This document shows positions 6,918-43,591 of a stretch of 64,000 nt of DNA, piece after piece. Every line of letters starts with the position of its first letter. Position 1 is the first letter of the stretch. The translations under genes and the position numbers were made by a program. The stretch is from a virus. The notes beneath the pieces were generated by a model, which saw only the letters and a program-made list of their open reading frames with translations, had not been told where the DNA came from and did not search any database. The stretch is taken from IMG/VR virus record IMGVR_UViG_3300045988_096784, one strand, 5' to 3'.

Positions 6918-7164
6918 TACAAGAAATCTCCTTTCCTACTTTCTATATTTATTATAACTTATTTTTTTGTTTTTTGCAAACCGATTCCTTGACTAAAGTG
7001 GTAATTTTTATGTCAAATATCTCTAATGAAAAGGATTAGATTTGTAATCCAACAAGTTGCGGAGATGCTATATAAGACTGCGTGAAGCATTGTTGGTGAA
7101 GAATACAGAAGTATTAGAGACGAAAAGACAAGGAACATATATAGTATTAGCAGCAGAGTAGTTT

Positions 7165-7647: not shown

Positions 7648-7660
7648 AATTTAAACCTCC

Positions 7661-7882
7661 TTAATGATTTTCACGAAGTTCATCAAGAGCGTTCTTGCTC
7701 AAAGCAATACAGCCTTCGCAATCCCAGGGGATAATTTTTACAGAATTTAAATCTTCCTCGCCGTAGTAATCAGTTACATTTCTGAGGGCTTCAGCGAAGT
7801 TGTTACCATAGGTAATGCCCTGATAAGTCTTTACCTGAAACTCTTCAAACATTTCTACCTCGTATTCGTAGTAATTCTTCAT
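7661..7882 (-). CDS. hypothetical protein (73 aa)
   Basis: ORF with class-A promoter 7895-7950 (TTGCAA-17-TATAAT). Confidence 0.5.
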   Translation of the reverse strand: MKNYYEYEVEMFEEFQVKTYQGITYGNNFAEALRNVTDYYGEEDLNSVKIIPWDCEGCIALSKNALDELRENH

Positions 7883-7992
7883 CTTTTGATACTCCTTTCC
7901 TCATCTTCTATAATTATTATATCATTATTTTTTAATTTTTGCAAAAGAAAAAGAGCTTCCTTTAAGGAAGCTCTTTGCTAGTTAATAAAGTT

Positions 7993-8223
7993 TTAAGATG
8001 CCTCTTCTTTGATTTTATAATCATAATCAAGGTTTTTGAGAAATTCGCCAAAATCATATCCAGAAATAATTCTACCGAATTTTGCGATGAACTGAGTCTG
8101 CGCGAAAAGAATAGCAAGTCTATATGCCTCGTCCGCAATCATATACTCAGGAGTTTCTCTATCAATAGGGAAATGGCTCTCGAAAGTTTTATTTTCGATA
8201 GAACAAGTAATAATAGCAGTCAT
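7993..8223 (-). CDS. hypothetical protein (76 aa)
   Basis: ORF with class-A promoter 8235-8285. Confidence 0.5.
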   Translation of the reverse strand: MTAIITCSIENKTFESHFPIDRETPEYMIADEAYRLAILFAQTQFIAKFGRIISGYDFGEFLKNLDYDYKIKEEAS

Positions 8224-8349
8224 GGCATTTACTTCCTTTCTTATTTTATATATTTATTATATATTATAATAAATATAATTGCAACAAGAGAAAAATAGAA
8301 GATGCGTGTGTAGGCGAGATTGGAAATTCTCCAATCTCGCCTATTAGGA

Positions 8350-9213
8350 TTACTTAGATGTGTCTCCAGTGAGGAAGCTAAAAGGATTAGAGTTGCCCAT
8401 CATAGCAGAAAGCATAAACATTTTACCCATATCGTTTCCATTATTGCCATCATTATCGCCAAACACCATGCTTGCCATCATCATAGGCATGAGATTGCCA
8501 AAAGGCTGGTCAGGAGAAGGTGCAGTATTACCAAAGTTTACGATAGGCATAATCTTGGTAATAAAGTTAAAGCCAAAGGGATTAGAGGTGGGAATTACAG
8601 TTTTAACCTCAGACTCAAGGATATCAATGACTTCAATGTTACCTTCAGAAATTGACGAAACGAACATGGGGTGATGCTTATGGATAATCATGTCGCCTTC
8701 CTTTACAGCAGAAGCCGCGACAGGCATACGATATACCATATTCTGGAAGGTGAAAGTAAAACCAGTCACATCAATGGTCTGCTTAGAGGTAGGATTATAG
8801 GTAAAATATTCACCCTTAGAATTACGAATAGCCAAGCCATAAGGAGAAAAAGCTACCTCGTCCCCGCAAGGGCCGAAATCAATATTCATATTAAAAGAGG
8901 ACTTATTGGGCTTAGGATTAGTAGTAGCAGAATTAGAGTCAGTATACATTGCCTTTGTCAACCTTTCTTTCATAATACTTACAAAACCGTAAGTGACGGG
9001 AATGTCATAGTGAAAAGAGCCACTATTTAAGAGTAGAAAAATTTCTCCACAGCGAATTTTAGTTTCAACTTCAAAAGTTAATTCTGAGGAAGCTAATTTC
9101 TTTAATAGTCTCCACGAATCATACGGAATTTTATAATATCCTGTTTTGGAATTAACTTTTTCTGTATATTTGTCAAGAATTGGGTCAATATCTTTAGAGC
9201 TAAGGCGATACAT
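8350..9213 (-). CDS. hypothetical protein (287 aa), Met/Gly/Asn-rich C-terminal tail
   Basis: ORF. Confidence 0.55.
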   Translation of the reverse strand: MYRLSSKDIDPILDKYTEKVNSKTGYYKIPYDSWRLLKKLASSELTFEVETKIRCGEIFLLLNSGSFHYDIPVTYGFVSIMKERLTKAMYTDSNSATTNPKPNKSSFNMNIDFGPCGDEVAFSPYGLAIRNSKGEYFTYNPTSKQTIDVTGFTFTFQNMVYRMPVAASAVKEGDMIIHKHHPMFVSSISEGNIEVIDILESEVKTVIPTSNPFGFNFITKIMPIVNFGNTAPSPDQPFGNLMPMMMASMVFGDNDGNNGNDMGKMFMLSAMMGNSNPFSFLTGDTSK

Positions 9214-9215
9214 AA

Positions 9216-9752
9216 TTATACCTTCAATCTCTTGTTAAGTTCAGCAATTAGCTCCTCATTAGTAAAGTCACTAAGAGACTTCTCATTTTTATCAAGAATG
9301 AAAGCCGGCGCGAGCCCGTTGCTGTAGTTGCAGCCGTAGTAGCTCGCAGATCCATCGCTGTTGACATAGCAAACGCTGTTCGAGGCCCAATTATCTTTCT
9401 CAGGAGATCCCCAAGGGGTAACAAGCCAGAACCAATTCTTGATATGAGGAGTTAGAATATGATTATACTTGCGATATTCGTCGAAGGTAAGGGGTGCAAC
9501 AGCGGTATTTAGTGAACCATATCCTTTATATCCATCCATTGCAGTCAGGTCGACATCGCGCGGAATAGCCTTAATGCCAGTTTTCTTAAGCCAAGCCTCA
9601 GCGCCCTTCCGCAATGTACTCTCTTTATAGTTATTAGAATTTCCAAAGACAAAATCAATTCCTACTTCAAGTGCAATTACGAAGGGGTTACCATCAATTT
9701 CGTCAAGAACAAGGCACTTTACTCCATTTACAGTAATAGTCTCACCAATCAT
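9216..9752 (-). CDS. hypothetical protein (about 178 aa)
   Basis: ORF; start moved to internal ATG preceded by AAGGAAGAG to remove overlap with the upstream gene. Confidence 0.5.
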   Translation of the reverse strand: MIGETITVNGVKCLVLDEIDGNPFVIALEVGIDFVFGNSNNYKESTLRKGAEAWLKKTGIKAIPRDVDLTAMDGYKGYGSLNTAVAPLTFDEYRKYNHILTPHIKNWFWLVTPWGSPEKDNWASNSVCYVNSDGSASYYGCNYSNGLAPAFILDKNEKSLSDFTNEELIAELNKRLKV

Positions 9753-9768
9753 ATTTCTCTTCCTTTCT

Positions 9769-9960
9769 TTAATTAGAATACTCTTCAACCATTTGAGAAA
9801 GCATATCAATTTCATCATCTGTTATGTTATCAAAAAAGATGCCGTATTTTGCGCAGATTTGAACTTGCTGAGATGGATCATTCATAGCCCATGGCTTTGA
9901 AGCTAATTCTCGAGCGGCCAGTTCAAAAGCGCCAGTGTATGCGAGAAATGACATATCCAT
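9769..9960 (-). CDS. hypothetical protein (63 aa)
   Basis: ORF. Confidence 0.45.
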   Translation of the reverse strand: MDMSFLAYTGAFELAARELASKPWAMNDPSQQVQICAKYGIFFDNITDDEIDMLSQMVEEYSN

Positions 9961-9963
9961 ATT

Positions 9964-10398
9964 TTACACCTCCTCTACAGAATCAAATTCATGAATTAAG
10001 ATTGCTCCATCGCTGATTTTTTCTGCGCAAACAATGTGTTTAATTTCATATTTATTTTCATTAGGACAATAAACAATGTGTCCACTTTTTAGCAAGGAAA
10101 GAAAGTCACTTTGATAGTAAGTACGACCTCCGAACTCGTTGCAAATTTTAAGGCGAATTTTATATCCTTCATCAACAGAATAGAGATCTCTTACATTATT
10201 ATCTACTTCGCATAACCGCCAAGTTGGGTCTCCATTATTAATGCTGACTCCAAGAACCGGAATAGGACTATAAGTTTCTTGAATAGCGAAAAATTTAGCT
10301 CTTTTGAGTTGGTCTGTATCAGAAAAGCCGAGGAACTCGCAGATTCTTACAGTGGAGTTCTTATATCCTTCTGATTTAATCAGTTCACTAATCTTCAT
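9964..10398 (-). CDS. hypothetical protein (144 aa)
   Basis: ORF with class-A promoter 10421-10460. Confidence 0.5.
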   Translation of the reverse strand: MKISELIKSEGYKNSTVRICEFLGFSDTDQLKRAKFFAIQETYSPIPVLGVSINNGDPTWRLCEVDNNVRDLYSVDEGYKIRLKICNEFGGRTYYQSDFLSLLKSGHIVYCPNENKYEIKHIVCAEKISDGAILIHEFDSVEEV

Positions 10399-10458
10399 AA
10401 CTTTTACTTCCTTTCCTTAACTTTCTATATATATTATATAATAATTTTATAAAAAAAT

Positions 10459-10484
10459 AAAGACGCTCTTTTAAGAGCGTCTTT
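10459..10484 (-). terminator. rho-independent terminator hairpin aaagacgctctt/aagagcgtcttt
   Basis: 12-bp perfect stem followed by a T run in the minus orientation, directly after the stop of 10488-10994. Confidence 0.6.
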
Positions 10485-10487
10485 ATT

Positions 10488-10994
10488 TTACTCAAGGTCG
10501 ATTACATAATTCTCTTGGATAAATGAATCTTCTGGAATATAGATGGTATACTCGGTAGACCAGGGTCCAAGCAAGAAATTCAAAACTGGGTTTTTAAAAC
10601 GGATTTTGTTTTCTTCTATGTATGGGGCATCATCTGTATTCTTAATATAGGACTGATCTGCCTCAATAGATTTGGCGGTTATACCTTTATCTGTTTGATA
10701 CAGGAATGAGTAATAGAGCCCATCTTCTGTATAATAACGGCCTACGTAAGAACTAAAATTATCACTCAAAGCAGTAATAGAATATGTTTGAGTGGTTTTT
10801 GCAGAATAAGTTGCAGGTTCAACAAAAATAACAATACCACAAATTATAATCGCAAATAAGAAAGCGATAAATGCTGAAAGTACAACTCCGAGAATTGTAG
10901 AGAATAGATATTCTGCAAAAGAGTCACAGTCTTTATATAATACTATAAGAGATGTAACCATGAGTAATATAAAGAATCCAATAGCTAATGGCAT
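10488..10994 (-). CDS. membrane protein (two N-terminal hydrophobic helices)
   Basis: ORF; N-terminal 60 aa strongly hydrophobic. Confidence 0.55.
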   Translation of the reverse strand: MPLAIGFFILLMVTSLIVLYKDCDSFAEYLFSTILGVVLSAFIAFLFAIIICGIVIFVEPATYSAKTTQTYSITALSDNFSSYVGRYYTEDGLYYSFLYQTDKGITAKSIEADQSYIKNTDDAPYIEENKIRFKNPVLNFLLGPWSTEYTIYIPEDSFIQENYVIDLE

Positions 10995-11298
10995 AAGTAA
11001 AACCTCTTTTCTTATTTATATAAATATATTACCATATTTTATTAAGATACGCAAGTAAATCTTATGGATTATAACGAACCGTCATAATTTCTCACTGACG
11101 CGGGAATTTTTTAGGCAGAGAAATTGGCAATCCCGCGGTAATTTTAATAAAATGGTCATAGAGGTATTTTTGTCCAAAATTTTCTAATGTATTGATTGTT
11201 CTATTGTTTATAATTTTAGAAAAAAGTTTAACAAATTTTAGGACAAAACCAGAAAATTATGTTATAATAAAAGTAAAGAATAGTAGAGAGGTGATTTT

Positions 11299-11442
11299 AT
11301 GAATTATTCCACTGTTTCTGTTAGATTAACAGAGGAAGAGAAGAAAGATTTGGAAGTCTTTGCTAAGAGTTGTGATTTAACAATGTCTTAGGTAATTAGA
11401 AAGGCTGTTAAAGAATATATTGAGAAAAATAAAATAGACTAA
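11299..11442 (+). CDS. ribbon-helix-helix (CopG/Arc-like) DNA-binding protein, one in-frame TAG
   Basis: MNYSTVSVRLTEEEKKDLEVFAKSCDLTMS-TAG-VIRKAVKEYIEKNKID; GAGGTGA ribosome-binding site; ends TAA. Confidence 0.6.
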
Positions 11443-11457
11443 AGGAGATTAAACTAA

Positions 11458-11679
11458 ATGACTAATGATACTTATAAAGTTTTTACGGTAAAGTTAGCAC
11501 GCAAACTCTGTGATCTTGGTTTTATTATTGTTGGAACTGTTCCTAATGTTTAGAAACCTTGGTTAAATGTTTATCTTTTTGAAGATAGTTAGGATTTAAG
11601 GGATGCAGTTTAGAAGTATAAAGGGATAAGTTCGCTATTGGAGGATGATTGCCATGGCAGACAAAAGAAGAAGTCCTAA
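11458..11679 (+). CDS. hypothetical protein (73 aa) with 3 in-frame TAG
   Basis: AAAGGAG ribosome-binding site, ATG, frame open through 3 TAG to TAA. Confidence 0.45.
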
Positions 11680-12043
11680 TTAGCGAACTATTAATCATAT
11701 TCATAAGGAACCATGTGATACTAATAATATATATGCTAGGATTAATAAGGAAGCGTTATTTGCGGCCCGTAGAGAGTTGACAGATGGAGAGTTCTCTTTG
11801 TGGATATTTTTTGCTAGTCAATCTGAGAGGTTAACTGATTATGATTTTGGGCCTACTATTATAGAAAAAGAGCTTGGTATAAAGAGAGCGAAATATACAA
11901 GTGCAGTAGATGGATTGGTAAAAAAGGGATATTTAGTTCCAGTTGAGAGAAAAGGATATTACGATTTTTACGAGATTCCTATTGATAGTGACGACGATAA
12001 ATATAATTATATAGCTCCAGACGGAGAGAAATTTTCTTTTTAA
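11654..12043 (+). CDS. putative iteron-binding replication initiator (winged-helix-like), one in-frame TAG
   Basis: GGAGGA ribosome-binding site, ATG; C-terminal AKYTSAVDGLVKKGYLV helix-turn-wing motif; immediately followed by iteron array. Confidence 0.5.
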
Positions 12044-12380
12044 TCGTATTTCTGCAATACTATGAAAAATTTCATGTATTTCTGAGAATACTATGATTTC
12101 ATCATATTGTGAAAAAGCTATGAAATTTTCATGTATTTGTTGGAAAGCGATGAAATTGTTTTCATAGTATTATCAGAATACTATGAAATTAATTGAAAAG
12201 GATTTTCATAGCTTTTTCACAATACCATGTCATAGTATTCTGACAATACCATGAAAGTAAATAAAAATCCATTTCATGGTATTCTGACAATACAACAAAT
12301 ATAACATATATTAGATAACAGAGTTAAGATAACAGTCGCGACTTTTTCATGTATTTGTGAAAAAGCGATGAGTAGGAGGA
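12040..12380. repeat. iteron or origin-like array: 6 or more imperfect palindromic copies of TTTCATGTATT...GAATACTATGAAA
   Basis: Direct and inverted copies (tttcatgtatttctgagaatactatga, tttcatagtattatcagaatactatgaaa, tcatagtattctgacaataccatgaaa and others) read directly from the sequence. Confidence 0.65.
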
Positions 12381-12387
12381 TTAAGGC

Positions 12388-12564
12388 ATGGAAGTATTTA
12401 AACCGATTAAGGTAGAAAATTATCAATTCATGAAGAATGGATTAAATTAGTATGAACCAGTATTAGTTTACTTTAAAGATGATGAAGAAGAAGGCAAGGT
12501 ATATTTTGTAATCTTATGGGGGAGAATAGAGGAGATTAATATGGCTATGAAGTAGCCATATTAA
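12388..12564 (+). CDS. hypothetical protein (58 aa) with 2 in-frame TAG
   Basis: AGGAGGA ribosome-binding site, ATG, ends TAA. Confidence 0.4.
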
Positions 12565-12609
12565 GGAAGGTTTTAGAAATTTCGATTTAAAAAATCCTAA
12601 GAAGAAGGG

Positions 12610-12720
12610 ATTTAGAATTTCAAATTAAAAAAATAGGAGATAAGAGAGAGAATAAGGATATAGGAAGAGAGAGATAGAGAGATGGATAGAGAAAGAAATA
12701 ATAATAGAGTTTTAGTAAGA
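12610..12720. repeat. polypurine (GA-rich) low-complexity tract
   Basis: ggagataagagagagaataaggatataggaagagagagatagagagatggatagagaaagaaataataatag. Confidence 0.5.
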
Positions 12721-12852
12721 ATAATAGAAAAAAAATAATAGAAATTGATAAAATAGGGAAGAGAGGTGCCGATCGGGTCTAGGTACAACCATCACAACAC
12801 TCGTCACAATGATCGTAAACCTAGCCTTCCGCGATTATAATATATATAAAAA

Positions 12853-12885
12853 GGAGAGAAGCTACAACACTTCTCTCCTTTAATC
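12853..12885. terminator. bidirectional terminator hairpin ggagagaag/cttctctcc
   Basis: 9-bp perfect stem, 8-nt loop, between convergent plus-island and minus gene 12904-13347. Confidence 0.55.
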
Positions 12886-12903
12886 TTTTTCCTCTTGTTT
12901 ATC

Positions 12904-13347
12904 TTACTTCAAATGTCTCAAAAACTCCATGATATTGCCCTCATCAGTCTTAGCCTTATTCATACTACCTGCAAGAGCATCAGAAATAGAATCAACAGCA
13001 ATGTCAATTACTTCATCAAGACTCTCTGCATTAACAACCTTAGCGGAAGTCTTAGCAGTTACAGTCATAGCCTGCATAAACTGCTCAATATCCTTAGCTG
13101 TCCACTTAGGATTGCTCTTGCTATAAACCAACGCAGCCACACGGCCAACGTCATCCTCAGTAAGAGACAAGTCATCAACATTTTCATAGAAAGTAGACTC
13201 AATCTCATCCAGAAGAATATCTCGCTCACGGTCTGCGGCGTTAGCCTCGGAGATTCTATTCATAGCATCGGTAAATGCCTTTGCAATCTCCTCCTGAGTA
13301 GAACCATTCTGCATTGCATCACGAATCATAATCTCATAACTATTCAT
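12904..13347 (-). CDS. hypothetical acidic protein (147 aa)
   Basis: ORF with class-A promoter 13405-13450. Confidence 0.5.
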   Translation of the reverse strand: MNSYEIMIRDAMQNGSTQEEIAKAFTDAMNRISEANAADRERDILLDEIESTFYENVDDLSLTEDDVGRVAALVYSKSNPKWTAKDIEQFMQAMTVTAKTSAKVVNAESLDEVIDIAVDSISDALAGSMNKAKTDEGNIMEFLRHLK

Positions 13348-13453
13348 AATAAGTTCTTTTAGTTAGAAAAAGCGTTATGATGCTTCTTAACTAAAATCCT
13401 CCTTTTCTTTATCTTATATATATATTATATTATATTTTTTATATATTGTCGAA

Positions 13454-14110
13454 CCGATCGGGTCTAGATAAAAAGATCGCTTTAACGGAATCCCGCGGAA
13501 AAGATTTTTACTTTTTAAATTGTTAGCAACATCTTTGCTATTGTTTGCTGTATCTTTAATAGTTTTAATTCTGTGAATATCAAGAAATTTTGAGAAAAAC
13601 GAGGCATTTTTTGCTTATTTTTAAGTAAATTTGTTAGAAAAACGCGTATTTTTGCAAGATTTTAGAGGTTTTTCGTTATATTTTGCGATAACAAGAGGTA
13701 AAAGATCGCGGGCCGATCGGTTTATCTAGCTAAAATCTCTATTTTTGAGCTATTTTTATCATAAAATCGTGTTAAACCGATCGGTTCCGCGAAAGAAATC
13801 TCTGGTCGTATTTGTTTTTCATAGCTATATCTTTGCTATTGCTAGTTGTATCTTAGAAAGTTTTGGTACTGTGAATACTTGACAATTTTAAGATTTTTAT
13901 TATAAAAAATTGGACGAGAGAGCCAATATCGCTGGACCGATCGGAACTGGATAAAGGAAGAAGTAAAGTAGGGCCGATCGGTGTTTGGAAGAGGGCGTTA
14001 TGAATTTTGGGAAAATTGCTATGAAGTTGCGTTATGGCCAAGTTGCTATGAAAATTTTGCGCTATGGTCCGATCGGGGAAATTCGGGCCGAGTCGCCCGC
14101 GACCGGCCCG
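13454..14110. repeat. gene-free repeat zone: about 7 copies of palindrome CCGATCGG (one more at 12769), 14-bp repeat ccgatcgggtctag, two about 70-bp direct repeats and tandem 30-bp units
   Basis: CCGATCGG at 13454, 13712, 13776, 13936, 13974, 14069. Direct repeats 13521-13595 and 13826-13897. Tandem ttgctatgaa...gcgctatgg units 14015-14070. Confidence 0.65.
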
Positions 14111-14132
14111 TCGAGTTTAGAAAATATAAAAT

Positions 14133-14160
14133 AAAAAGAGAGGCCGAAGCCTCTCTTTTC
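14133..14160 (-). terminator. rho-independent terminator agagaggc-ttcg-gcctctct
   Basis: GC stem plus T run in minus orientation just after stop of 14161-14412. Confidence 0.55.
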
Positions 14161-14412
14161 TTAATCCTCGTTTTCTAAATTGATTTCTCCTATACAGTTA
14201 CACCGTATCGGAGATTCAAGAACAAATTCATCTCCATATCCAACGATAGTTATTTCTCCATACTTTTTACAATACTCGTCTATCTTTTCGATTATACTAT
14301 TCCAATCTTTCTCTTGCGCTTTTTGTTTTCTAAGTGCCACTTCTTTATAGGCGGTAGCACTCAACCATTGCAACTCCTCGTCATTCAGTTTGTTGAAATC
14401 AATATCAACCAT
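14161..14412 (-). CDS. hypothetical protein (83 aa)
   Basis: ORF. Confidence 0.5.
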   Translation of the reverse strand: MVDIDFNKLNDEELQWLSATAYKEVALRKQKAQEKDWNSIIEKIDEYCKKYGEITIVGYGDEFVLESPIRCNCIGEINLENED

Positions 14413-14429
14413 CTAAAAATCTCCTTTCT

Positions 14430-14918
14430 TTAATGAAAAATCTCAGCCGGAATTTCACTAAAAACTTGCTTAAATTGCTCCATAGTCAGTTCTCTTGCCG
14501 CTCTCTCGACCCTTTCTTTTGCCCAGTCGCAAACCATTTCACAAGAAATAAATTTAATTTCATACCCGGTAATGGCGTAGATTTTAGGCGACCACTCAAA
14601 TCTTTTTGTATCAGCCATATTTCCAGTTAAAATCATATATTCGCCGGTGGCTTGATTTTCTTCTGACTGTTCAACCCAACATTGAACTATATTTTCAACA
14701 TAGTTTTTCCCCGTTTTAACCGCTTCTTTTTCGGTTCGAGCATTGATTAAAAAGGTAGAAAGCATAATATCATCACGAAATGATACCGTAAATTTATAAG
14801 GCTTCTTAGAGAAGATACCCTTGCGACCTTCACACCAAAAGGTAACTTGAAAATTAACACGAAATTGTTTCAGACTTTCCATTTCTTTTATCTCCTTTCC
14901 ATGGTTAAATGATACCAC
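14430..14918 (-). CDS. hypothetical protein (162 aa)
   Basis: ORF; class-B promoter TTGACT-17-TGgTATCAT immediately upstream. Confidence 0.55.
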   Translation of the reverse strand: MVSFNHGKEIKEMESLKQFRVNFQVTFWCEGRKGIFSKKPYKFTVSFRDDIMLSTFLINARTEKEAVKTGKNYVENIVQCWVEQSEENQATGEYMILTGNMADTKRFEWSPKIYAITGYEIKFISCEMVCDWAKERVERAARELTMEQFKQVFSEIPAEIFH

Positions 14919-23629: not shown

Positions 23630-24122
23630 ACTCTTTTGACTCCCTTTCTTTTTGTGGTGTGGTTCTCTTTTGTTCTGTCTGTATTGTATCAAACCTTTAG
23701 CAGTTTGTCAATACCTTTTTTGAAATTTTTTAATTTTCAAAGTGCCGTGCTTTTGTCTCTGTCCTACTGGACAAGTCCAGTTTACCACCAAAACACTCAC
23801 TTGTCAATAGTTTTTTTGAAATTTCTTTCTCTCTCTCTTGCACAAAATAAATAACATCTTGTTGTGCAGTTTGCACAAACCCTTTACGCGCGTATTCCTT
23901 TAGGGGCGTGCTTTCTTGCTTTCGTACTTTAACGAGTGAAAGAGGCCAACTACACTTCAATACTTTACCATGTGAAAGAGGGGCGCGTATTTTGGGAAAA
24001 ACTGGAAATTTTTTTGTAAAATCGTTCTGCCACGCCATTTCAAAATCTAAATCGACTTTTCAATCTCAATAACGAAAAAGAGAGAAGAACTCACTTCTTC
24101 TCTCCGCATTTACAATATAATC

Positions 24123-24365
24123 TTATCCATCGTCGGTTGCTTCAAAATTAAAAATCAAATTATATCCATCCTCAGTTTCTATCATTTCATATCCTTTTAA
24201 GATATATCCATCCTCTAGTTTAATATTAGTCGCATCAGATCTCCACATTGTAGGAATATACTCTAGCCTTGGATAACGATCGTTCTCCTTTCCGCAAGCA
24301 GTTAACAACAATACGATTAATATTATGTTAATTATAAAGCTGATACTTCTTCCCAATTTTATCAA
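24123..24365 (-). CDS. putative lipoprotein (signal peptide with lipobox LLTAC)
   Basis: TTG start after GGAGG; MIKLGRSISFIINIILIVLLLTACGK. Confidence 0.5.
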   Translation of the reverse strand: MIKLGRSISFIINIILIVLLLTACGKENDRYPRLEYIPTMWRSDATNIKLEDGYILKGYEMIETEDGYNLIFNFEATDDG

Positions 24366-24765
24366 TTTCTTCCGCCTCCATTGGCCTAAATCCAATACAC
24401 GTCAAAGTCCCTTCCGGGCCTTCACGCTCTAACTCCGTCCTACAAGCATCATAAATAAGCCAGTAGTCTTTATTCTCTTCCCATCCTAATTCTTTAGCCA
24501 TTGCAACAGCTTTTAGCAAATCATTCTTATTCTTCGCTCTACAAACTACTTTGGTCTCCGCTTCCGCTATCCAGTTATGGAATAAGTCTCTATCGAGGCT
24601 TATTCCTATATGATACATAAGACCGTCTCTTTCTTTAACAACTTCTTTACTTCCCCAATATAACTTTTCCAAAAGAAAAGCAATAGAAGCATGGGAAACT
24701 TGTGCGGCAAGTTTCCCTGGAGACATATTTAAATCTCGTCTTGCGATAATTAATTGCTTGAACAT
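24328..24765 (-). CDS. peptidyl-tRNA hydrolase, PTH2 family
   Basis: Signature MSPGKLAAQVSHASIAF near the N terminus and about 115-aa core typical of PTH2. Confidence 0.6.
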   Translation of the reverse strand: MFKQLIIARRDLNMSPGKLAAQVSHASIAFLLEKLYWGSKEVVKERDGLMYHIGISLDRDLFHNWIAEAETKVVCRAKNKNDLLKAVAMAKELGWEENKDYWLIYDACRTELEREGPEGTLTCIGFRPMEAEEIDKIGKKYQLYN

Positions 24766-25517
24766 TTTTCCAAAACCTCCAAGAAAATTCTAAAATTGCG
24801 GGAATTGCGGTCTGGAATTGCAAAATAAATATTTGGAATATTATAATTGCGGGCTGCGTTTACGAGCAAGGTAGCGACCGTTGATGGATCTTGCATAAAA
24901 ACACCACAACCCCAGGCTCCCGCGATTAAATTTTCCACTCCTTTAGCCTCGGCAATTTGATACATAAAATTAATTCTCTCTTCCATTATCCTATTGTTTA
25001 GAGAAAGAGGAACTTGCTGATAAGTATGTGCTGTTCTATAATTAGGAGAAGCACAAGTAATTACATCAGCTAATTTTCTACTATCGTCTTTTTCAAAGAC
25101 TACATCAGGAGTATAGATAGCTCTATCAAGATATAGGGCTCGATTCAGTCTCTGTCTATTCCATGCGTAATAAGTATCATCAAAAGCAAGAAGAATAGGG
25201 TAAAGGTTGCTTTCGTGACACAATGCCTCTTCTTGTGCAGAGCTGCCTCCAAGGAAGTAACCACCTGGATGTTTATAGCTTGCATAATTTAAGATCGCAG
25301 TCTTGCTCCGATCGGTTAAACCGAATAGACAGGATACACTATCTTGGTCTTTAAGATAAAAGGTATTATGGTGGGTTTCTCGCGGTTTTTGCGGAAAAGG
25401 AAGATTGGGGCCAAAAATTTCAGAGTTTATAATTGCGCGATCTGTATCTTCCTTGAGTCTCACTTTAATGTCTGCGTAATGCGATTGCGCGTGTTGTTTG
25501 AGCTCTTCTCGTTTCAT
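24750..25517 (-). CDS. bacterial-type poly(ADP-ribose) glycohydrolase-like macrodomain protein (DUF2263/TIGR02452-like)
   Basis: PARG signature GGYFLGGSSAQEE (GGG-X6-8-QEE) plus downstream AGAWGCGVF glycine-rich macro motif. Confidence 0.6.
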   Translation of the reverse strand: MKREELKQHAQSHYADIKVRLKEDTDRAIINSEIFGPNLPFPQKPRETHHNTFYLKDQDSVSCLFGLTDRSKTAILNYASYKHPGGYFLGGSSAQEEALCHESNLYPILLAFDDTYYAWNRQRLNRALYLDRAIYTPDVVFEKDDSRKLADVITCASPNYRTAHTYQQVPLSLNNRIMEERINFMYQIAEAKGVENLIAGAWGCGVFMQDPSTVATLLVNAARNYNIPNIYFAIPDRNSRNFRIFLEVLEKCSSN

Positions 25518-25742
25518 TTGCAGTTTCCTTTCTTCCGTGCGGTTGGGCAGAAGTGGATAATTTAATTATCCCAATCTTCAAATAAAGTGTGTAAACTATT
25601 TGTTTCCGCCGCCAATCTCTTTAAATATTCTTTAAGAATTTTATTTTCTTTAACTTTAATTGCATAATCGCAAGTATTGTCGCAGTCTGGTGTGTACTAC
25701 CGACCGAATCTATTATAACAATAATCAATACAAGGACACATT

Positions 25743-26183
25743 TTACTCATATTTACACCCATTCATTCTACAGTCTATCGTGCATTGCCCTGACGCTCCT
25801 TCACAAGGAATAGCATCAGGATAGTATTCAAAATAAGACGAGGTTAATAGAACTTCATACCCAAGTTCCCGCAGTATTCTCTCTGCGACATACCTATCTC
25901 TTAACTTAATCCATTCTTCTCTGTTTACTTTTGTTTCTCTATCTATTTGATTTGAGGTGTCTACATCCACAGTTATAGTTCCATCACTAATAGAGATGGC
26001 CTCATCCAACCTTCTAAACCATTTTTTAAAGGGATTTTGAATATGCAATATATCTTCAGCATATTTGTCAAAATCTTCCGAAAATTTCATTATCTTTGTG
26101 CCTGTTTCGCTAACTATAAACAATTTTTCATCAACCCCAATCTTGTTAATAGACCTACTCCTCCGGGGACAGGAGTTGACCAT
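25743..26183 (-). CDS. hypothetical protein, C-terminal Cys cluster; true start uncertain (overlaps folD end)
   Basis: ORF; C terminus CEGASGQCTIDCRMNGCKYE. Confidence 0.4.
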   Translation of the reverse strand: MVNSCPRRSRSINKIGVDEKLFIVSETGTKIMKFSEDFDKYAEDILHIQNPFKKWFRRLDEAISISDGTITVDVDTSNQIDRETKVNREEWIKLRDRYVAERILRELGYEVLLTSSYFEYYPDAIPCEGASGQCTIDCRMNGCKYE

Positions 26184-26875
26184 ACCTTATTTTTACTTGC
26201 AATTTCATCAATTTCTACAAAGTCTCCAAGAATAATTCCTGCTTCATTTCTACGAATACCAACATCTATAACAATAGCATTAGGACAGGCTTCTCTTGTT
26301 AAGCTAAATTTTCCTACCGCAGAGATAATTAAATCCGCTTGTCTTGTTAAATAGAGTTTTGTGTTTATATCTGTTTTACTGTGACACATTGATACGGTCA
26401 TATTTCTATCTAGAAGAGCTTTAGCCATTGGCTTTCCTACAATATCGCTTCTTCCCAAAACAACAGCAGATTTACCTTCGTAGTTAAAGCCACATTTATC
26501 CAAATAATCTATAATTCCTCTTACTGTTGCTGGAGTAATATTACTCATTGGATTTAATCCATCTGCATCTTTAGAAACAGGTATTTGATTATAATTGAAA
26601 TCAATCCCGTCTGCTATTGGCATTTGGACTATTACAGCATCCCAATCTTTCACATGGTCTAAGATCAATCTTAACTCTACTGAACTATTAGCTCTAAACA
26701 CTTCTGCTTCCCAACCAAGAGCGTTAAAGTCTTTTATTTTATTACGAATATAAATTTGATTTGCGGGATCCTAGGCTGTTGCGTCGATAATCATGAGTGA
26801 TGGAACATTACCACTAATCTCCCGCAATTTGTTTACCTATTGTTGAAAATATTCTTTTATATTAATCTATTGCAT
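26114..26875 (-). CDS. folD: bifunctional methylene-THF dehydrogenase/cyclohydrolase FolD, reads through 3 in-frame TAG
   Basis: C-terminal domain matches FolD throughout (GKSAVVLGRSDIVGKPMA, TPVPGGVGLLT). N-terminal 58 codons (MQ-TAG-INIKEYFQQ-TAG-VNKLREISGNVPSLMIIDATA-TAG-DPANQIYIRNKIK) align to the FolD N terminus only if the 3 TAG are sense. ATG 10 nt after GGAGG. Confidence 0.75.
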
Positions 26876-27194
26876 CTGGATCAAGCCTCCAAGGATCACT
26901 AGTATCGTAATCAATCATTTCATAGAAAGATATTTCATTTTCATTAACTTCTAATACCTAGTGAGGAATACACTATACTTCATAATCAAAATCTTTATTA
27001 ATATGGTAAGAAGTATATATATGAATAGCAATAGGTCTAGGATCATTAACTCCCTAAATATCCCATAAACTTATTGCTTTATTTTGGAAGATTTCCTAAG
27101 CATACTATGGAGATATAGCAATACTGATTATTAAGATATTAAAATAATACTATGCTTTTTCCGGTAAATCTAAATATGGTTCGTCAAAGAACAT
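26862..27194 (-). CDS. hypothetical protein (110 aa) carrying 8 in-frame TAG; first gene of the leftward transcript, stop overlaps folD start
   Basis: ATG after AGGAG; minus promoter TTGATT-17-TATAAT at 27232-27260; frame open only if TAG is sense; ends TAA within ATGCAATAG of folD. Confidence 0.45.
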
Positions 27195-27231: not shown

Positions 27232-27296
27232 ATTATAGCATTTTTAAATAAATTAATCAAATAAGATTTGACAATCTAGTTTTTTTTTGTTATTAT
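27232..27296. promoter_or_regulatory. divergent promoter region: leftward TTGATT-17-TATAAT and rightward TTGACA-17-TATTAT
   Basis: Back-to-back consensus elements separating the minus-strand block from the plus-strand late operon. Confidence 0.55.
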
Positions 27297-27320
27297 ATGA
27301 GTATAAAAGGAGATGACAGT

Positions 27321-28367
27321 ATGATAAAATTAGATTATACTATTGAGTCTCCAGAAGAACGGAAGGCGCTTGTCGAAAAAATAATCGCAGAAAATCCGAA
27401 CCTTAGTTCGAGTTATTTAGAAATATTAGCAGATTATTTAGTTCTATGTATGGAAAAGCAAGAGAAGAAAGAAAAGAATATATTAACAGATAATAGAATG
27501 GCTACTGTTAATAAAAGAGAATGTTCTTTCGAAGGGCTTGCGTCATAGATGGAAAATGGCGAGGATGGCATTTATGGTTTAATGTCAGAAAATAAAAATG
27601 TTATATTTTAGCCAAAGATTTCTATTACACAGAAAGATTTAGATACTATACCATGTTTAAAATAGTTGAGAGAAACCATTAATGTCTGGGAGGGCGCTTT
27701 AAAACGCGCTGCTGGGACAAAATAGGCATATATGATGAAAAAAGCATTAATAGAGATGCGAAAAGATTAGTATATCATTAAGCAAGCATATTAGAAACCT
27801 ATTATACCATGTAAATTAACGAGATCCGTAAGAACTCATATTCCTCTTGATGATTAGAGTTATCTTAATGGACAGGAGGTAGTAGTAAAGGGTATTTCGC
27901 TAATGGACGCCAATGTTGTTTCTGCTATTTTATGCAATTATTCAAAATTAAAAGAAGATAGTTATGATTAGTTTGAGGGAGATACATGGTATTTAATTCA
28001 ATCATTTGAAGAAATATGTGATAAAGCTCTTAAAGACTTTCCAATCTATTTACGAATTGTTGAACTCAAAATTGATAAAAAGTAGAATAACGAAATATAG
28101 GAAATATTAAAAAATGAGTTTGGTAAAACATATAGTGTTGAATATATTTCTAGCCTATGGAGAAATAAGATTCCTAAACTCATTGCGGAAGAGGCTTTAG
28201 AAGATTTTTTACGTTGGTAGTATAAACAAAAAGGATACCCAATGAAAAAATGTTCTAAGTGTGGGCAATTAAAGCCAGCCCATAATCAATTCTTTTCAAA
28301 GAATAAGACAAGCAAAGATAACTTATATAGTATCTGTAAGCGCTGTCGCAATAAGAAAAGAGGTTGA
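27321..28367 (+). CDS. hypothetical protein (about 348 aa), 12 in-frame TAG, C-terminal CxxC...CxxC zinc ribbon
   Basis: AAGGAG ribosome-binding site, ATG; one frame through 12 TAG to TGA. Confidence 0.55.
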
Positions 28368-34582: not shown

Positions 34583-35272
34583 ATGGCTAAGAGTTCTAAA
34601 AGATTAGGTAATGCCACTTTTGTCCAGTATGGATATGGTCAAGTGGAGCCAAACCATCTTTCCGCTCCAAGAAATGGTCAAGTATATGCTCAGCTTCCCG
34701 CAGCTAGCGCTATTGAGATTCTTGAGAACGGTCAATTTGTAAAGTATGATTATGCAAAAGGCGTATGCGATTTTAGTACGGAAGCTACTTCTGGCGCCTG
34801 GATGATGGTATTTAATGAAGTAAAGATTTATAGAGATCGCGAAACTGATGCTGATTTTGCTATGATTAAGGATAATTATAATGCTCGTGTATATAGTCCA
34901 ATTGGACAAACAGTTTCTACACTTGCTACAATAAGTGATTATACCGGAGAAGCTGTACGCGAAGGTAGTGATGTAGCATATAAGAAAAATATGGAGACAT
35001 TTACTTATCCTGCATTGATGCCAGAAGGAACTAAAATGGTACCTCGCGTAATTAAGATTAGTATTGGTGATATTTGGACTACTAATACCATTAAAGCTAA
35101 TGCCGGAGAGCTTGCAGTAGGCGATCGTCTAAAGATTGATACTGATGGATATTTAACTAAAGATACTGAAACTTCTGCTAAAGGTGGAGATTTAGATCCT
35201 ATCTTTGCAGTAGTAAAAGTGTATACTATGCCAGATCTTCAACCTGGTGTAAAAGTACAGCGTGTAGGTTAA
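34583..35272 (+). CDS. capsid-associated structural protein (229 aa), no TAG
   Basis: AAGGAGG ribosome-binding site; codon usage of a highly expressed gene; between scaffold and major capsid protein. Confidence 0.6.
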   Translation: MAKSSKRLGNATFVQYGYGQVEPNHLSAPRNGQVYAQLPAASAIEILENGQFVKYDYAKGVCDFSTEATSGAWMMVFNEVKIYRDRETDADFAMIKDNYNARVYSPIGQTVSTLATISDYTGEAVREGSDVAYKKNMETFTYPALMPEGTKMVPRVIKISIGDIWTTNTIKANAGELAVGDRLKIDTDGYLTKDTETSAKGGDLDPIFAVVKVYTMPDLQPGVKVQRVG

Positions 35273-35291
35273 TTGGAAGGAGTGAAGAAGA

Positions 35292-36344
35292 ATGTTAGAT
35301 AAAGCTAATTTACTTAGTTTAATGAAAACTGTCGCTAATGCAAATCCTTCTGGTACCTATAGCTATCAAGGAGAGTCTTTTAGCTATGACGCTTTAAATA
35401 CTACTTTGCGTAATGAGCTAAATGAATTTGTTGGCACAGATGAACTTTATAGAGAAAATAAAAATACTCTATTCTCTTTAATTGAGCAGACTATGGATGA
35501 AGTTGTTCCTAATCGTTTACTCAATTCTTATGGCAATTTTGCTGAGATTAGAACTTTCGCACAAGGCGACAAGCCTGTATTTACTCGTAGAACTGGACTT
35601 ACTCGCGCTAAGCAATTCATTACTCGTGTGGGGCTTGCTGGTGTGTATGAGACCTTTAAGCTTGGTTCTGAGAGCTTCGAAGTTGGAACAAGCGCCATTG
35701 GTGGAGCTGCTCGTATCGGATTTGAGGAGTTCCTTGATGGAAGAGTAAACTTTGCAGAACTTACTCAAATTGTAACAGAGGGTATGCAAGAGCTTATTTA
35801 TAGAGAGATTGCTCAAGCTCTTATGGGTTCTATCAATCAGCTTCCCGCAGCAAACCGTTGTGCTGTTGCTGGTTTTGACGAATCAACTATGGATTATCTT
35901 GTAAATACTGCTACTGCTTATGGTCAACCAACTATTTATTGCACTCGTGAGTTTGCAGTAAAAATGATTCCAGACAATGATGCTTGGATTTCTGACAATA
36001 TGAGAGATCAGTATTGGGGAACTGGTTATCTTGCAAATTACAAGGGAACTAGAGTGGTAATTCTACCTCAAACTCTTGAGGATGAGACTAACTCCAAAAA
36101 GATGATTGATCCAGGTTATGCTTGGATTATTCCTGGTGGAGCTGAGAGCCGTCCTGTAAAAGTTGCTTTTGAAGGTACTACCCACGTGCGCGAACGCGAT
36201 GATAATGACGACTGGTCTCGTGATATTCAGGTTTACCGTAAGGTTGGTGTCGGTGTAATGATGGCGAATAACATCTTTTCTTATGTTGATACTGAACTTC
36301 AAGGCGAGCTTGATAATACTAACCCAAATCCAAATAATGGTTAA
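35292..36344 (+). CDS. major capsid protein (350 aa), no TAG
   Basis: Size, position, biased codon usage, followed by strong terminator. Confidence 0.65.
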   Translation: MLDKANLLSLMKTVANANPSGTYSYQGESFSYDALNTTLRNELNEFVGTDELYRENKNTLFSLIEQTMDEVVPNRLLNSYGNFAEIRTFAQGDKPVFTRRTGLTRAKQFITRVGLAGVYETFKLGSESFEVGTSAIGGAARIGFEEFLDGRVNFAELTQIVTEGMQELIYREIAQALMGSINQLPAANRCAVAGFDESTMDYLVNTATAYGQPTIYCTREFAVKMIPDNDAWISDNMRDQYWGTGYLANYKGTRVVILPQTLEDETNSKKMIDPGYAWIIPGGAESRPVKVAFEGTTHVRERDDNDDWSRDIQVYRKVGVGVMMANNIFSYVDTELQGELDNTNPNPNNG

Positions 36345-36350
36345 TTGACA

Positions 36351-36380
36351 GGGGATAGGGAAATATCCCTATCCCCTTTT
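36351..36380 (+). terminator. rho-independent terminator ggggataggg-aaatat-ccctatcccc plus T4
   Basis: 10-bp stem directly after the capsid gene. Confidence 0.65.
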
Positions 36381-36408
36381 ATTTATTGAGAAAAAGGAGA
36401 TAAAAATT

Positions 36409-36942
36409 ATGAAAAATAATTGCACTGTTTATAATAAGAGCGCAGGTCGTGTTGTATATAGATTGCCTGAATTGGGCGTGCGCCGTATGTTTTACCCTGG
36501 AGAACACAAGGAACTTGAAGTATCTGAACTAGAAAAGCTAGTACAAACACCTGGAGGCCGCAAATTAATTTATAATTACTTGCTTGTGGATGATAGAGAG
36601 ATTGTTGAATATCTTATTAATGGTAGGGTTGAACCAGAGTATTGGATGAAAGAAGAAGAGATTGATTCTTGGATGAATACGTGTTCTTTAGATGAATTTA
36701 AGGATGCTCTTGATTTTGCTCCAGAAGGCACCAAAGATCTGATTAAATCCCATGCTATTTCTCTTCCCTTAAATGATATGTCTAAAAGAGATGCTTTGGA
36801 AAAACAATTAGGATTTAATGTTACTAAAGCATTAGAATTAACAGCAGATGATAAAAAGAATCCTAAGGAAGAGAAACCTGTAAGAAGAGTGTCAACTACA
36901 AGTGAGGATGCTCCAAAACGCAGAGTAGCTATTTCTGATTGA
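36409..36942 (+). CDS. hypothetical structural protein (177 aa), no TAG
   Basis: ORF. Confidence 0.55.
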   Translation: MKNNCTVYNKSAGRVVYRLPELGVRRMFYPGEHKELEVSELEKLVQTPGGRKLIYNYLLVDDREIVEYLINGRVEPEYWMKEEEIDSWMNTCSLDEFKDALDFAPEGTKDLIKSHAISLPLNDMSKRDALEKQLGFNVTKALELTADDKKNPKEEKPVRRVSTTSEDAPKRRVAISD

Positions 36943-40092: not shown

Positions 40093-41484
40093 ATGCGTTT
40101 TGGTATTCGTGAGATTTGCGATGTAGTACTTCGTGCCAAAAGCTATCAGACTTTAGGTAATCGTAAGTTCTATAAAAATGAACCAGTTTTGTACTTTGAC
40201 ACTTTAAGAACCTCTACTCTTGAAGGTGCTGCAACAACTGTATACGCACAGGGCGGACGTGGATATACTAGATTGATTGCTTGGGAAGGTGAGCGTACTC
40301 TAACATTTACAATGGAAGATGCTTTACTTTCTCCAGAGAGCTTCTCTATTCTTTCTGGTGCAGGTCTGCTTGATGCAACAAAAGAAGCTCCAATTTACGT
40401 TCATCAAACTTCTCAGGTAGAAGTTGAAACAGCTAACACTATCGTAATTCCTGATAAAGCTTGCTGGAATGGATTTGCAGATCATGAAAATGAAATGTAT
40501 CATCGTTCTGCTGACATTTTTGTAATGGTATTAGGAGATGATGGTCAAGTTAATGCTGAACCATGCATTCCTGTTTCTGTTTCTTATACAGAGGACGGAA
40601 AATCAACTTTAACTTGTTATTCTCATGCGGGAGTGCTCCCATCTGGTACTATCGTTTTAGTTGACTATTATGTAAAGCGCACTGGTGGCGCCCAGATGAT
40701 TGAGATTACCGCTGATAAGTTTGGTGGAAACTATTATCTTGAAGCTTCTACTCTATTCCGCCGTGAGAGCGATGGCGTAGATATGCCTGCTGAATTTATT
40801 ATTCCTAACTGTAAGGTTCAGAGTAACTTCACATTCAGCATGGCTGCTAACGGTGATCCATCTACCTTTACATTCACAATGGACGCTTTCCCAGACTACA
40901 CTAAGTTTGATCAAACTCATAAAGTTCTTGCCGCTATTCAGGTAATTACTGATGAAACTGGGGAAACCGAAGGCTCTCGTGAGCCATGCTCTGAGAATGT
41001 TGGTACTTATGAGAGTGAAGCTGCTGATGTAACTGTAAATTTTGTTTCTAACAGTGCCACAGAGGCGGAACTTGATGTAACTGGTATTGTAACAGGAAAG
41101 GCTTATGATACTGAGGCTTATGGAGATACAATTCCAGAAGCCGCACAAATTAGCCTCCAAATTCCAGTAGAGAGCGATAGTACCAAGTATACTGTAGTAA
41201 CAACTAACCCAGCATATGAGAAATACTTCTCTACTGATGACTGTATTGAGGGCAATACAAAGACTCAAACCGTAGATGGCGCAGAATTGGCAGATGGCCT
41301 ATTAGTAATTCTTACTAAGGAGAGTAATACAACTCCTATTACAGCTAAGATTACTAAGATTAACGGAGACTTTGAGAAGAGTTATACTATTAATAATAAG
41401 CTCAGTTTTGCAGAAAGCACAAGCACTTATTCTGGCGCAAAAATGCGCAATAAGTTAGTCTCTGTTAGCGATGACACCATTTAA
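40093..41484 (+). CDS. major tail protein (463 aa), no TAG
   Basis: GGAGGA ribosome-binding site; biased codon usage; lies 1.5 kb upstream of chaperone and tape measure genes; strong terminator follows. Confidence 0.6.
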   Translation: MRFGIREICDVVLRAKSYQTLGNRKFYKNEPVLYFDTLRTSTLEGAATTVYAQGGRGYTRLIAWEGERTLTFTMEDALLSPESFSILSGAGLLDATKEAPIYVHQTSQVEVETANTIVIPDKACWNGFADHENEMYHRSADIFVMVLGDDGQVNAEPCIPVSVSYTEDGKSTLTCYSHAGVLPSGTIVLVDYYVKRTGGAQMIEITADKFGGNYYLEASTLFRRESDGVDMPAEFIIPNCKVQSNFTFSMAANGDPSTFTFTMDAFPDYTKFDQTHKVLAAIQVITDETGETEGSREPCSENVGTYESEAADVTVNFVSNSATEAELDVTGIVTGKAYDTEAYGDTIPEAAQISLQIPVESDSTKYTVVTTNPAYEKYFSTDDCIEGNTKTQTVDGAELADGLLVILTKESNTTPITAKITKINGDFEKSYTINNKLSFAESTSTYSGAKMRNKLVSVSDDTI

Positions 41485-43051: not shown

Positions 43052-43591
43052 ATGAGTGAAATTACTTTTAAAGATTTGGGTTTGGAGCCTAAAATTAAAT
43101 ATACAGAAGTAAAAATTGGAGAAGATAAGATTTTATCTGTGGTTAATTATCTTCCGATTGCAGATAAAACAAATCTTATTACTTTTGTCGCAGATTTAGC
43201 GATAGATGAGATGACTGGGTGTTTTAGTCCGGTAAGAGTAGAAACTTATTTTGCTATTGCTATTTGCAGATGGTATGGTGGAATTGTTTTTGAGCAAGAA
43301 GATGTGCATGAAAATATTGCCAAAACTTATGATACACTAGAGACTAATGGTGTTATTGATGCAGTTAGAAGTGCTATTCCAGTAGATGAATTGTCTTTTA
43401 TTGAAGACTTAGTTAGAGATACTTTAAGCGATATAGCAAGATATAATAACTCTGCCGCAGGCATTATCCAAATGATGAATAAAAATGCTTCTGGATTAGA
43501 TACATATATTACTGATATAATGGAAAAAATTAAAAATGGTGAGAATCTTGAAACTTTATCAGTAATTAAAGATGTGGTTGGAAAAGATTAA
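43052..43591 (+). CDS. tail assembly chaperone candidate (179 aa), no TAG
   Basis: Acidic about 180-aa protein immediately upstream of the tape measure gene. Confidence 0.5.
   Translation: MSEITFKDLGLEPKIKYTEVKIGEDKILSVVNYLPIADKTNLITFVADLAIDEMTGCFSPVRVETYFAIAICRWYGGIVFEQEDVHENIAKTYDTLETNGVIDAVRSAIPVDELSFIEDLVRDTLSDIARYNNSAAGIIQMMNKNASGLDTYITDIMEKIKNGENLETLSVIKDVVGKD

Follow-up and report, generated by a model that had tools for sequence, protein, structure and literature searches.

PTH2-family and FolD-family genes on opposite sides of a genetic code boundary within one operon of a TAG-recoded phage

Why should a phage that reads a stop codon as sense keep, close together, a peptidyl-tRNA hydrolase of the PTH2 family and a folate enzyme of the FolD family? 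The question is raised by positions 24328-26875 (minus strand) of the IMG/VR virus record IMGVR_UViG_3300045988_096784, analysed here as a stretch of 64,000 nucleotides (hereafter the window). In the initial annotation both genes were considered translation-linked and were placed beside a tRNA array: PTH2 would help the phage to cope with peptidyl-tRNA drop-off at TAG, FolD would supply 10-formyl-THF for the formylation of initiator tRNA and for purines, and together they would tune host translation. We find that both genes belong to the proposed families, and that they lie on opposite sides of a genetic code boundary running through a single operon. With moderate confidence in the explanation as a whole, we propose that this operon consists of two halves, in which PTH2 would be part of an inherited translation kit, FolD would be a late enzyme gated by amber suppression, and a third enzyme, a bacterial-type poly(ADP-ribose) glycohydrolase-like macrodomain protein (PARG), would act separately.

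A code boundary within a seven-gene operon

The window comes from a phage in which TAG encodes glutamine (code 15), in agreement with the recoded stop codon noticed initially. Treating TAG as sense raises the total length of open reading frames (ORFs) from 9,843 to 21,508 amino acids (aa), with a longest ORF of 2,908 aa. The codon is dense in the late plus-strand genes from position 27297 on (274 TAG in 11,686 codons), nearly absent from the minus-strand early genes (1 in 4,671), and never terminal: the 52 gene ends counted in the window comprise 43 TAA, nine TGA and no TAG. The assignment to Gln follows from the codons found opposite window TAGs in relatives, where CAA or CAG accounts for 66 of 102 and 37 of 54 non-TAG partners, and from a Gln at codon 3 of FolD orthologues. 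Neither ARAGORN nor Rfam detected a phage tRNA with a CUA anticodon, either in the window or over the adjoining 7.4 kb, which together cover about half of the genome.

The interval 24328-26875 extends exactly from the stop of PTH2 (24328) to the start codon of FolD (26875), as initially delimited, and it holds five ORFs rather than two, the three unmentioned genes being PARG and two small ORFs that we call X115 and small62. These five make up most of an operon of about 3.1 kb on the minus strand, from about 27260 to 24079, with seven genes in the order geneA, FolD, X115, small62, PARG, PTH2 and orf90. The operon adjoins the late genes and forms the boundary between a standard-code early block and a TAG-to-Gln late block.

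More precisely, the boundary cuts through the operon, because TAG content and base composition split there. In-frame TAG codons number six in geneA (26862-27194, minus strand, 110 aa), three plus one at the apparent end in FolD (26090-26875, minus strand, 261 aa) and one in the Cys-rich small62 (25562-25750, minus strand, 62 aa), whereas PARG (24750-25517, minus strand, 255 aa) and PTH2 (24328-24765, minus strand, 145 aa) have none in 400 codons, against about nine expected at late-gene density. X115 (25743-26090, minus strand, 115 aa), with a Cys-rich C-terminus, is also TAG-free. GC content at third codon positions (GC3) is 0.20-0.23 in geneA and FolD (0.23 in FolD), as in late genes, and 0.31-0.34 in PARG and PTH2. 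FolD and PTH2 thus stand on opposite sides of the boundary. The split is conserved: geneA is retained among relatives with six, three or one TAG and small62 with one or two, while X115 is conserved and TAG-free and PARG is TAG-free in all relatives. PTH2 is without in-frame TAG or TGA in 85 of 85 related loci (12,003 codons), including loci that look TAG- or TGA-recoded, an appearance based on scores of 20-kb loci that are crude and noisy in AT-rich DNA and were used qualitatively only. No match was found for geneA, X115 or small62 in Pfam, NCBIfam or PHROGs.

The signals for translation initiation add to this picture. Shine-Dalgarno sequences precede geneA (GGAG), FolD, PARG and PTH2 (GGAGG), and none is apparent at X115 or small62. 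Neighbouring genes overlap by 14 nt (geneA/FolD), 1 nt (FolD/X115), 8 nt (X115/small62) and 16 nt (PARG/PTH2). The lack of a Shine-Dalgarno sequence suggests that X115 and small62 rely on translational coupling, all the more for X115, whose start overlaps the FolD stop. We infer that the half comprising geneA, FolD, X115 and small62, being TAG-bearing or dependent on an upstream TAG-bearing gene, would not be made until amber suppression is active. PARG and PTH2, TAG-free and each with its own Shine-Dalgarno sequence, could be made at any time, before any code switch.

Three enzymes of known kinds and a translation island

PTH2, FolD and PARG are individually ordinary and of known kinds. On code-15 translations, the three Pfam profiles that had been named for PTH2 and FolD all score above their gathering cut-offs. 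PTH2 matches PF01981 over the full profile (positions 1-115; E=1.2e-22, 80.8 bits, cut-off 23) and PHROG 1866 (E=3e-21), and contains the signature quoted in the initial annotation, SPGKLAAQVSHAS. Residues K18, D106, T110 and E111 can be aligned to catalytic segments of archaeal Pth2 structures and vary little or not at all across 9-27 homologues; studies of S. solfataricus Pth2 have reportedly assigned roles to the catalytic Lys in GK(L/I)AAQ and to the Asp and Thr in D-x-G-x-T-E. An AlphaFold (AF2) model of PTH2 (pLDDT 90.2) gave 13 significant matches in the PDB, all of them Pth2/Bit1, with TM scores (target) of 0.76-0.84.

With cellular Pth2 / PTRH2 (Bit1), the phage protein therefore shares the profile match, the fold (1XTY, 1Q7S, 1RLK, 1WN2, 3ERJ, 2ZV3), the GK..AQ..HA motif and the D..T.E segment. 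It differs in scoring below the archaeal equivalog cut-offs, in its place in a TAG-recoded phage, in its translational coupling to PARG, and in an insertion at residues 38-55, predicted to form a beta-hairpin, which in relatives measures anywhere between 0 and about 75 residues. Its profile scores mark it as a family member and not as an archaeal-type orthologue. Judging from its residues and modelled fold, PTH2 appears to be a catalytically intact hydrolase, most likely freeing tRNA from peptidyl- or N-acyl-aminoacyl-tRNA. Separately, several PTH2-bearing viral contigs (L064, L065 and L075, also L068 and L073) look TGA-recoded, with 8-14 ORFs of at least 250 aa that each hold at least three in-frame TGA; PTH2 is TGA-free there.

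FolD, translated with TAG as Gln, matches PF02882 (E=1.2e-36, 125.9 bits, gathering cut-off 27), PF00763 (E=1.7e-9, 38.4 bits, gathering cut-off 32.8) and PHROG 7320, and both Pfam domains are matched only if the TAGs at codons 3, 13 and 35 are read through. A fourth TAG at codon 254 (26114-26116) is the apparent stop. We take it to be read through as well because no counted gene in the window ends in TAG, and TAG-free FolD orthologues, which carry Gln at codon 3 and occur in less densely recoded clades, extend beyond it. The true stop is the TAA at 26090-26092, which overlaps the next ATG as TAATG. Residues Y42, K46, Q84 and D105, the loop G141-R-S-x-x-V-G-K-P and the PVPGGVG motif are invariant in the phage clade and align to 3P2O and 4A5O. 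Studies of the E. coli and human enzymes are said to have established the roles of the Tyr and Lys (YxxxK), the Gln (vQxP), the Asp (kDvDG) and the GxSxxVGxP NAD(P) loop.

The two domains and these motifs are common to bacterial FolD (C. jejuni 3P2O, E. coli 1B0A) and to other phage FolD proteins (PHROG 7320; VRE9/EF1, Lak). Compared with the bacterial enzymes, the window FolD shares about 36% identity with the best solved FolD, is shorter (261 versus about 285 aa), carries a deletion of 10-12 residues and contains in-frame TAG codons read as Gln. It is best described as a divergent, probably active one-carbon folate enzyme. As for its use, ThyA and DHFR are the most recurrent neighbours of phage FolD, an adjacency that is frequent outside the YonG lineage, and for this reason FolD points to dTMP supply rather than to the fMet role given to it initially. 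Thymidylate synthesis is the most likely sink in phages, with initiator-tRNA formylation and folate-dependent tRNA modification as possible extra sinks. In another viral contig group (L157, positions 6069-14810; also L141, L158-L161, L175, L176 and L180), about 9 kb hold FolD together with a Macro-domain gene, a tmRNA of 380 nt, a gene of the integrase family and a YqeY/GatB-like gene; some of these loci look TGA-recoded.

PARG scores well above cut-off with TIGR02452 (E=1e-50, 172.8 bits, cut-off 50) and PF10021 (E=3e-26, 93 bits, cut-off 23.5). Its motifs HPGGYFLGGSSAQEE (GG..GGSSAQEE, the QEE signature) and AGAWGCGVF loop align with the PARG of D. radiodurans and T. curvata (5ZDG, 3SIG); the T. 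curvata study reportedly defined a GGG-X6-8-QEE signature and a diphosphate-binding GxxGxGxF loop. It is also similar in length to bacterial-type PARG (T. curvata 3SIG, D. radiodurans 5ZDA; TIGR02452 / DUF2263), from which it differs in being phage-borne and positionally mobile within a conserved accessory operon. PARG lies upstream of FolD in L112/L113, between FolD and PTH2 as in the window, or downstream of PTH2 (L027), and is absent from L012. In L002 (9514-10128), a genome otherwise 97% identical, it is apparently truncated, with a match only to residues 87-235 and no gene called. PARG may be dispensable, since PTH2 remains intact in that genome. An obligatory functional pairing of PARG with PTH2 was considered and rejected on the same grounds of mobility, absence and apparent truncation. 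By its motifs, PARG would be an ADP-ribose-removing enzyme independent of PTH2 and FolD.

The tRNA array said to lie beside these genes is in fact 22 kb from the operon. Its eight tRNA genes (194-2125, minus strand) form the end, on the window side, of a larger island; near-identical genomes show it extending beyond position 1. In genomes 97.5-98.7% identical to the window (L184, 12912-20309; likewise L183, L185 and L021), the island reaches about 7.4 kb past the window edge, and contains, besides a 52-aa ArfA-like ORF, at least 25 tRNAs in all and a tmRNA of 316 nt (tag DNDYFENYLAA; Rfam 114.6 bits); its last genes, where the locus stops, are two for tRNA-Gln. The ArfA-like ORF has the motif KKGKGSFNRKLKHK, of the KGKGS(Y/F)xRKxKH type, and scores 24.9 bits with PF03889 (cut-off 25.5, E=1.4e-5). 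Enterococcus phage VRE9_2 (L022, 8851-8997; also L023 and L083) carries, between PTH2 and FolD, an ORF of 48 aa with the C-terminal motif of ArfA, KKGKGSYKRKPKHK; in the Enterococcus phages this ORF is annotated as hypothetical and reaches 23.5 bits with the Pfam ArfA profile, just under the cut-off. Our literature search found no report of phage-encoded ArfA-like factors. The window part of the array is headed by a tRNA-Ile with a UAU anticodon (2050-2125, minus strand), and a tRNA-Ile(TAT) is also present in VRE9_2.

A theme of translation rescue is therefore real in this phage, with its tRNAs, tmRNA and ArfA-like ORF. The idea of translation tuning holds in the sense of a broad investment in translation; its TAG-specific rationale is not supported, as standard-code relatives also carry PTH2, the ArfA-like ORF and FolD.

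These relatives are informative about the age of the system. The source phage is a large gut phage, a siphophage of roughly 146 kb with an SPbeta-type (YonD/YonG) late module. The same operon is present in 97% identical contigs of about 140-148 kb, and it lies beside the divergent late cluster (YonG_N/YonD_N) in several clades whose FolD is 40-97% identical. The more distant TAG-recoded clades keep geneA and FolD at this place, down to about 40% FolD identity. No near-identical phage was found in GenBank, where the only match was one of 58 bp to Phass-1. The closest cultured matches to the portal protein are the Enterococcus phages VRE9_2, VRE9_3 and EF5 (about 30% identity), followed by SPbeta-like, 949-like, Tsamsa-like and phiCD211-like phages.

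VRE9_2 (PP680568) and EF1 (MF001358), the closest cultured relatives and both annotated in the standard code, have a portal about 30% identical to that of the window and share the late-operon architecture of the window (sigma factor, PHROGs 3314, 15503/24618, 2739, 4088 and 2729, in the same order in VRE9_2), the ArfA-like ORF and a tRNA array, and place PTH2 close to FolD, within about 2.6 kb. In this region the genes run ThyA, endolysin, DHFR, PTH2, two small genes, the 48-aa ArfA-like ORF, one small gene and FolD, with the tRNA array 2 kb further. PTH2 and FolD are the only homologues of window genes in that region, which differs from the operon described here in its standard code, in the placement of PTH2 between DHFR and FolD, in having ThyA nearby, in lacking PARG, in its reversed gene order and in the proximity of the tRNA array. 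The presence of PTH2 and FolD in standard-code relatives indicates that these enzymes were not invented for the code change. We propose that PTH2 is one arm of a translation-maintenance kit, together with the tRNAs, the tmRNA and the ArfA-like factor. This kit would have been inherited from standard-code ancestors as a general aid in heavy or disturbed translation during infection, and for that reason would be useful under recoding without having been created for it. FolD, on the other side of the boundary, would be a late one-carbon enzyme.

Weighing the explanation against its rivals

Several observations weigh against this explanation. The ends of the operon are consensus matches only, namely a sigma-70-like promoter candidate (27232-27260, minus strand; TTGATT-17-TATAAT with TG), in a divergent gap of about 100 bp before the late operon start at 27297, and an intrinsic-terminator-like hairpin with an 11-bp stem and a T run (24079-24105, minus strand). 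PTH2 falls under the NCBIfam equivalog cut-offs (82.2 versus 126 bits for PRK04322, 66.2 versus 82 bits for TIGR00283), as does FolD, whose best NCBIfam score is 158.6 bits versus 445 (PRK14179 and others). The deletion in FolD removes 10-12 residues of an active-site loop after the DG(L)xP motif, canonically DG(F/L)HP, and is common to the gut-phage clade and not shared by the Enterococcus phage FolD. With regard to the folate sink, and in contrast to many phage FolD genes, no thymidylate synthase (ThyA) or DHFR is nearby: a Pfam scan of 30 early-block ORFs (2.6-24.4 kb) found no ThyA, DHFR, Fmt, RtcB, release factor or aminoacyl-tRNA synthetase, and matched only uracil-DNA glycosylase (UDG), AbrB/SpoVT-like, T5orf172 and MraZ-like families. 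In another phage group FolD has a tmRNA in its vicinity, and in Enterococcus phages it lies close to PTH2 and the ArfA-like ORF, so that a translational role for it is possible. The activities of PTH2, FolD and PARG, and their physiological substrates, are predicted from sequence, and the DNA covered amounts to about 72 kb of the roughly 146-kb genome.

Among the alternatives, a role of the operon in counter-defence fares best, and we consider it unlikely. PARG would remove ADP-ribose added by defence ADP-ribosyltransferases, PTH2 would deacylate the N-acetylated aminoacyl-tRNA produced by GNAT toxins or free peptides from cleaved tRNAs, and housekeeping would be secondary. Pth is known to counteract tRNA-acetylating toxins. 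The content of the operon varies like that of an accessory hotspot, PARG being mobile, absent or seemingly truncated (L002); yet PARG is not specifically tied to PTH2, and the most conserved members, FolD and geneA, have no obvious anti-defence role. In relatives, the neighbouring genes comprise among others YpsA/SLOG, an AAA_28 kinase, DUF488 and DUF1653, but no defence system or toxin target was identified. PTH2 itself is broadly conserved over a large phage lineage and not sporadic. Also in favour are its surroundings in other phages: the RtcB tRNA ligase gene is 1.1 kb from PTH2 in phiCD211 and directly downstream of it in L038/L039, and in XacN1 PTH2 has NADAR and Nudix genes nearby. Iyer et al. 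(2021) place phage PTH2 in an RNA-repair setting (PMC7824862). A survey of NAD-ADPr functions in viruses mentions neither PARG nor Pth (PMC9503650).

The second alternative develops the drop-off idea: PTH2, with FolD, would be a specific adaptation to TAG recoding, clearing peptidyl-tRNA at in-frame TAG before or during the code switch and supporting extra initiation. We judge this improbable. It would account well for a PTH2 that is TAG- and TGA-free at every locus, recoded-looking ones included, and many of the closest PTH2 relatives are in recoded phages. However, PTH2 is also present in the standard-code phages VRE9_2 and EF1, in phiCD211 and in jumbo phages of Xanthomonas, Sinorhizobium and Pseudomonas, and the query gave no match in Lak or crAss-like records; the TAG-recoded Lak megaphages do have FolD and PARG. 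Jumbo-phage PTH2 has already been described (PMC7824862), and these genomes, like those of phiCD211 and XacN1 in which PTH2 is annotated, resemble the present one in being large and tRNA-rich.

A link to suppression is suggested by two TAG-recoded, non-syntenic contigs that share only PTH2 and in which a tRNA(CUA) lies upstream of it, at 0.8 kb in L041 (9140-10444) and at 2.5 kb in L071 (7398-10342). The L041 cluster runs tRNA(CUA), Pro, Gln, Gln, and PTH2 follows after 66 nt; the PTH2 of L071 looks frameshifted. At least ten tRNAs lie within 10 kb in 15 of 80 loci, a share that by a rough estimate is close to that of random placement in a 140-kb genome and gives no ground to call PTH2 enriched beside tRNA arrays.

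The beginning of FolD is also suggestive, as ATG-CAA-TAG is a two-codon minigene in the standard code, reminiscent of the lambda bar minigenes, which load Pth. Nevertheless, codons 2-10 of the late genes show neither a deficit nor an excess of TAG (5 observed versus 5.1 expected), and RF1 acting at UAG releases a free peptide and not peptidyl-tRNA. FolD itself needs suppression and could not act before the switch. Finally, the tmRNA and ArfA-like ORF of the same genome would suit such an adaptation, but the Enterococcus phages likewise have an ArfA-like ORF and FolD. PTH2 coping with drop-off at TAG is accordingly not supported as the reason for its presence, although this idea, like the counter-defence role, may yet contribute.

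A further possibility, on which we would put equally little weight, concerns the kit itself: a ribosome-rescue kit kept strictly in the standard code in a large Firmicutes phage lineage (tmRNA, ArfA-like factor, PTH2 and a near-complete tRNA set) might absorb the damage done by stop suppression, and so be a pre-adaptation that allowed repeated switches between codes 11, 15 and 4. The damage absorbed would include non-stop ribosomes, read-through of those host ORFs that have TAG or TGA as their stop, and early stops resembling minigenes, of which FolD gives an example.

Lastly, that FolD is a decaying, stop-interrupted pseudogene and its pairing with PTH2 functionally meaningless is hardly credible: three in-frame TAGs and one at the apparent end under the standard code, a weak N-terminal domain score (38 bits) and the deleted loop might suggest it, but the comparative data led us to reject it, since the interruptions are TAG only, neither TAA nor TGA nor a frameshift occurring across more than 20 loci, TAG positions 3, 13 and 254 are common to two clades whose FolD is only 63% identical, TAG-free orthologues have Gln at codon 3 and run past codon 254, neither the catalytic Y, K, Q and D nor the GRSxxVGxP motif varies, and the entire late block uses the same code.

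Surrounding genes and significance of the boundary

The last ORF before the terminator-like hairpin, orf90 (24123-24395, minus strand), has a lipoprotein-like signal (LLLTAC) and an uncertain start, and its position is taken by other small ORFs in relatives. On the early side, the only gene with an in-frame TAG is a uracil-DNA glycosylase (4237-4950, minus strand), at codon 36 (4843-4845), a position at which E. coli Ung has Gln; its catalytic motif is GQDQYH, the usual form being GQDPYH. The base composition of the window is mosaic, with a GC content of 0.40-0.43 and GC3 up to 0.49 in the early block between 14 and 24 kb, and a GC content of 0.30-0.35 and GC3 of about 0.2 in the late block and at 2-6 kb.

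The first late gene (27297-28367, plus strand) is sigma-factor-like (PHROG 5767), with a C-terminal Zn-ribbon region weakly resembling endonuclease VII and HNH. Because it holds 11 in-frame TAG codons, a late-transcription factor would itself need amber suppression. Five genes within the recoded late block are TAG-free (34583-36942, 40093-41484 and 43052-43591, plus strand), of which at least two have structural PHROG matches (4088, 2729), while their neighbours have 2-4 TAG per 100 codons. The 2,908-aa ORF (43697-52423, plus strand) contains 101 in-frame TAGs and is probably the tape-measure protein, by its position and size (VRE9_2 has an 8-kb tape-measure gene).

In several respects the phage resembles the code-15 gut phages described by Borges et al. 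(10.1101/2021.08.26.457843), which have TAG-rich late structural genes, TAG-free early genes, no TAG in the most highly expressed structural genes and presumably a standard-code host; their study mentions no Pth, tmRNA or ArfA. What differs here is that the code boundary falls inside one operon, and that no gene for a suppressor tRNA, release factor or aminoacyl-tRNA synthetase was found in the approximately 72 kb covered.

A boundary in the middle of an operon means that a folate enzyme would be gated by amber suppression, while a tRNA-recycling and an ADP-ribose-removing enzyme would always be readable. The translation genes appear older than the code change, which constrains models for the origin of alternative codes in phages. 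Finally, the tmRNA and the ArfA-like ORFs of these phages point to a connection between infection and ribosome rescue that can be tested.

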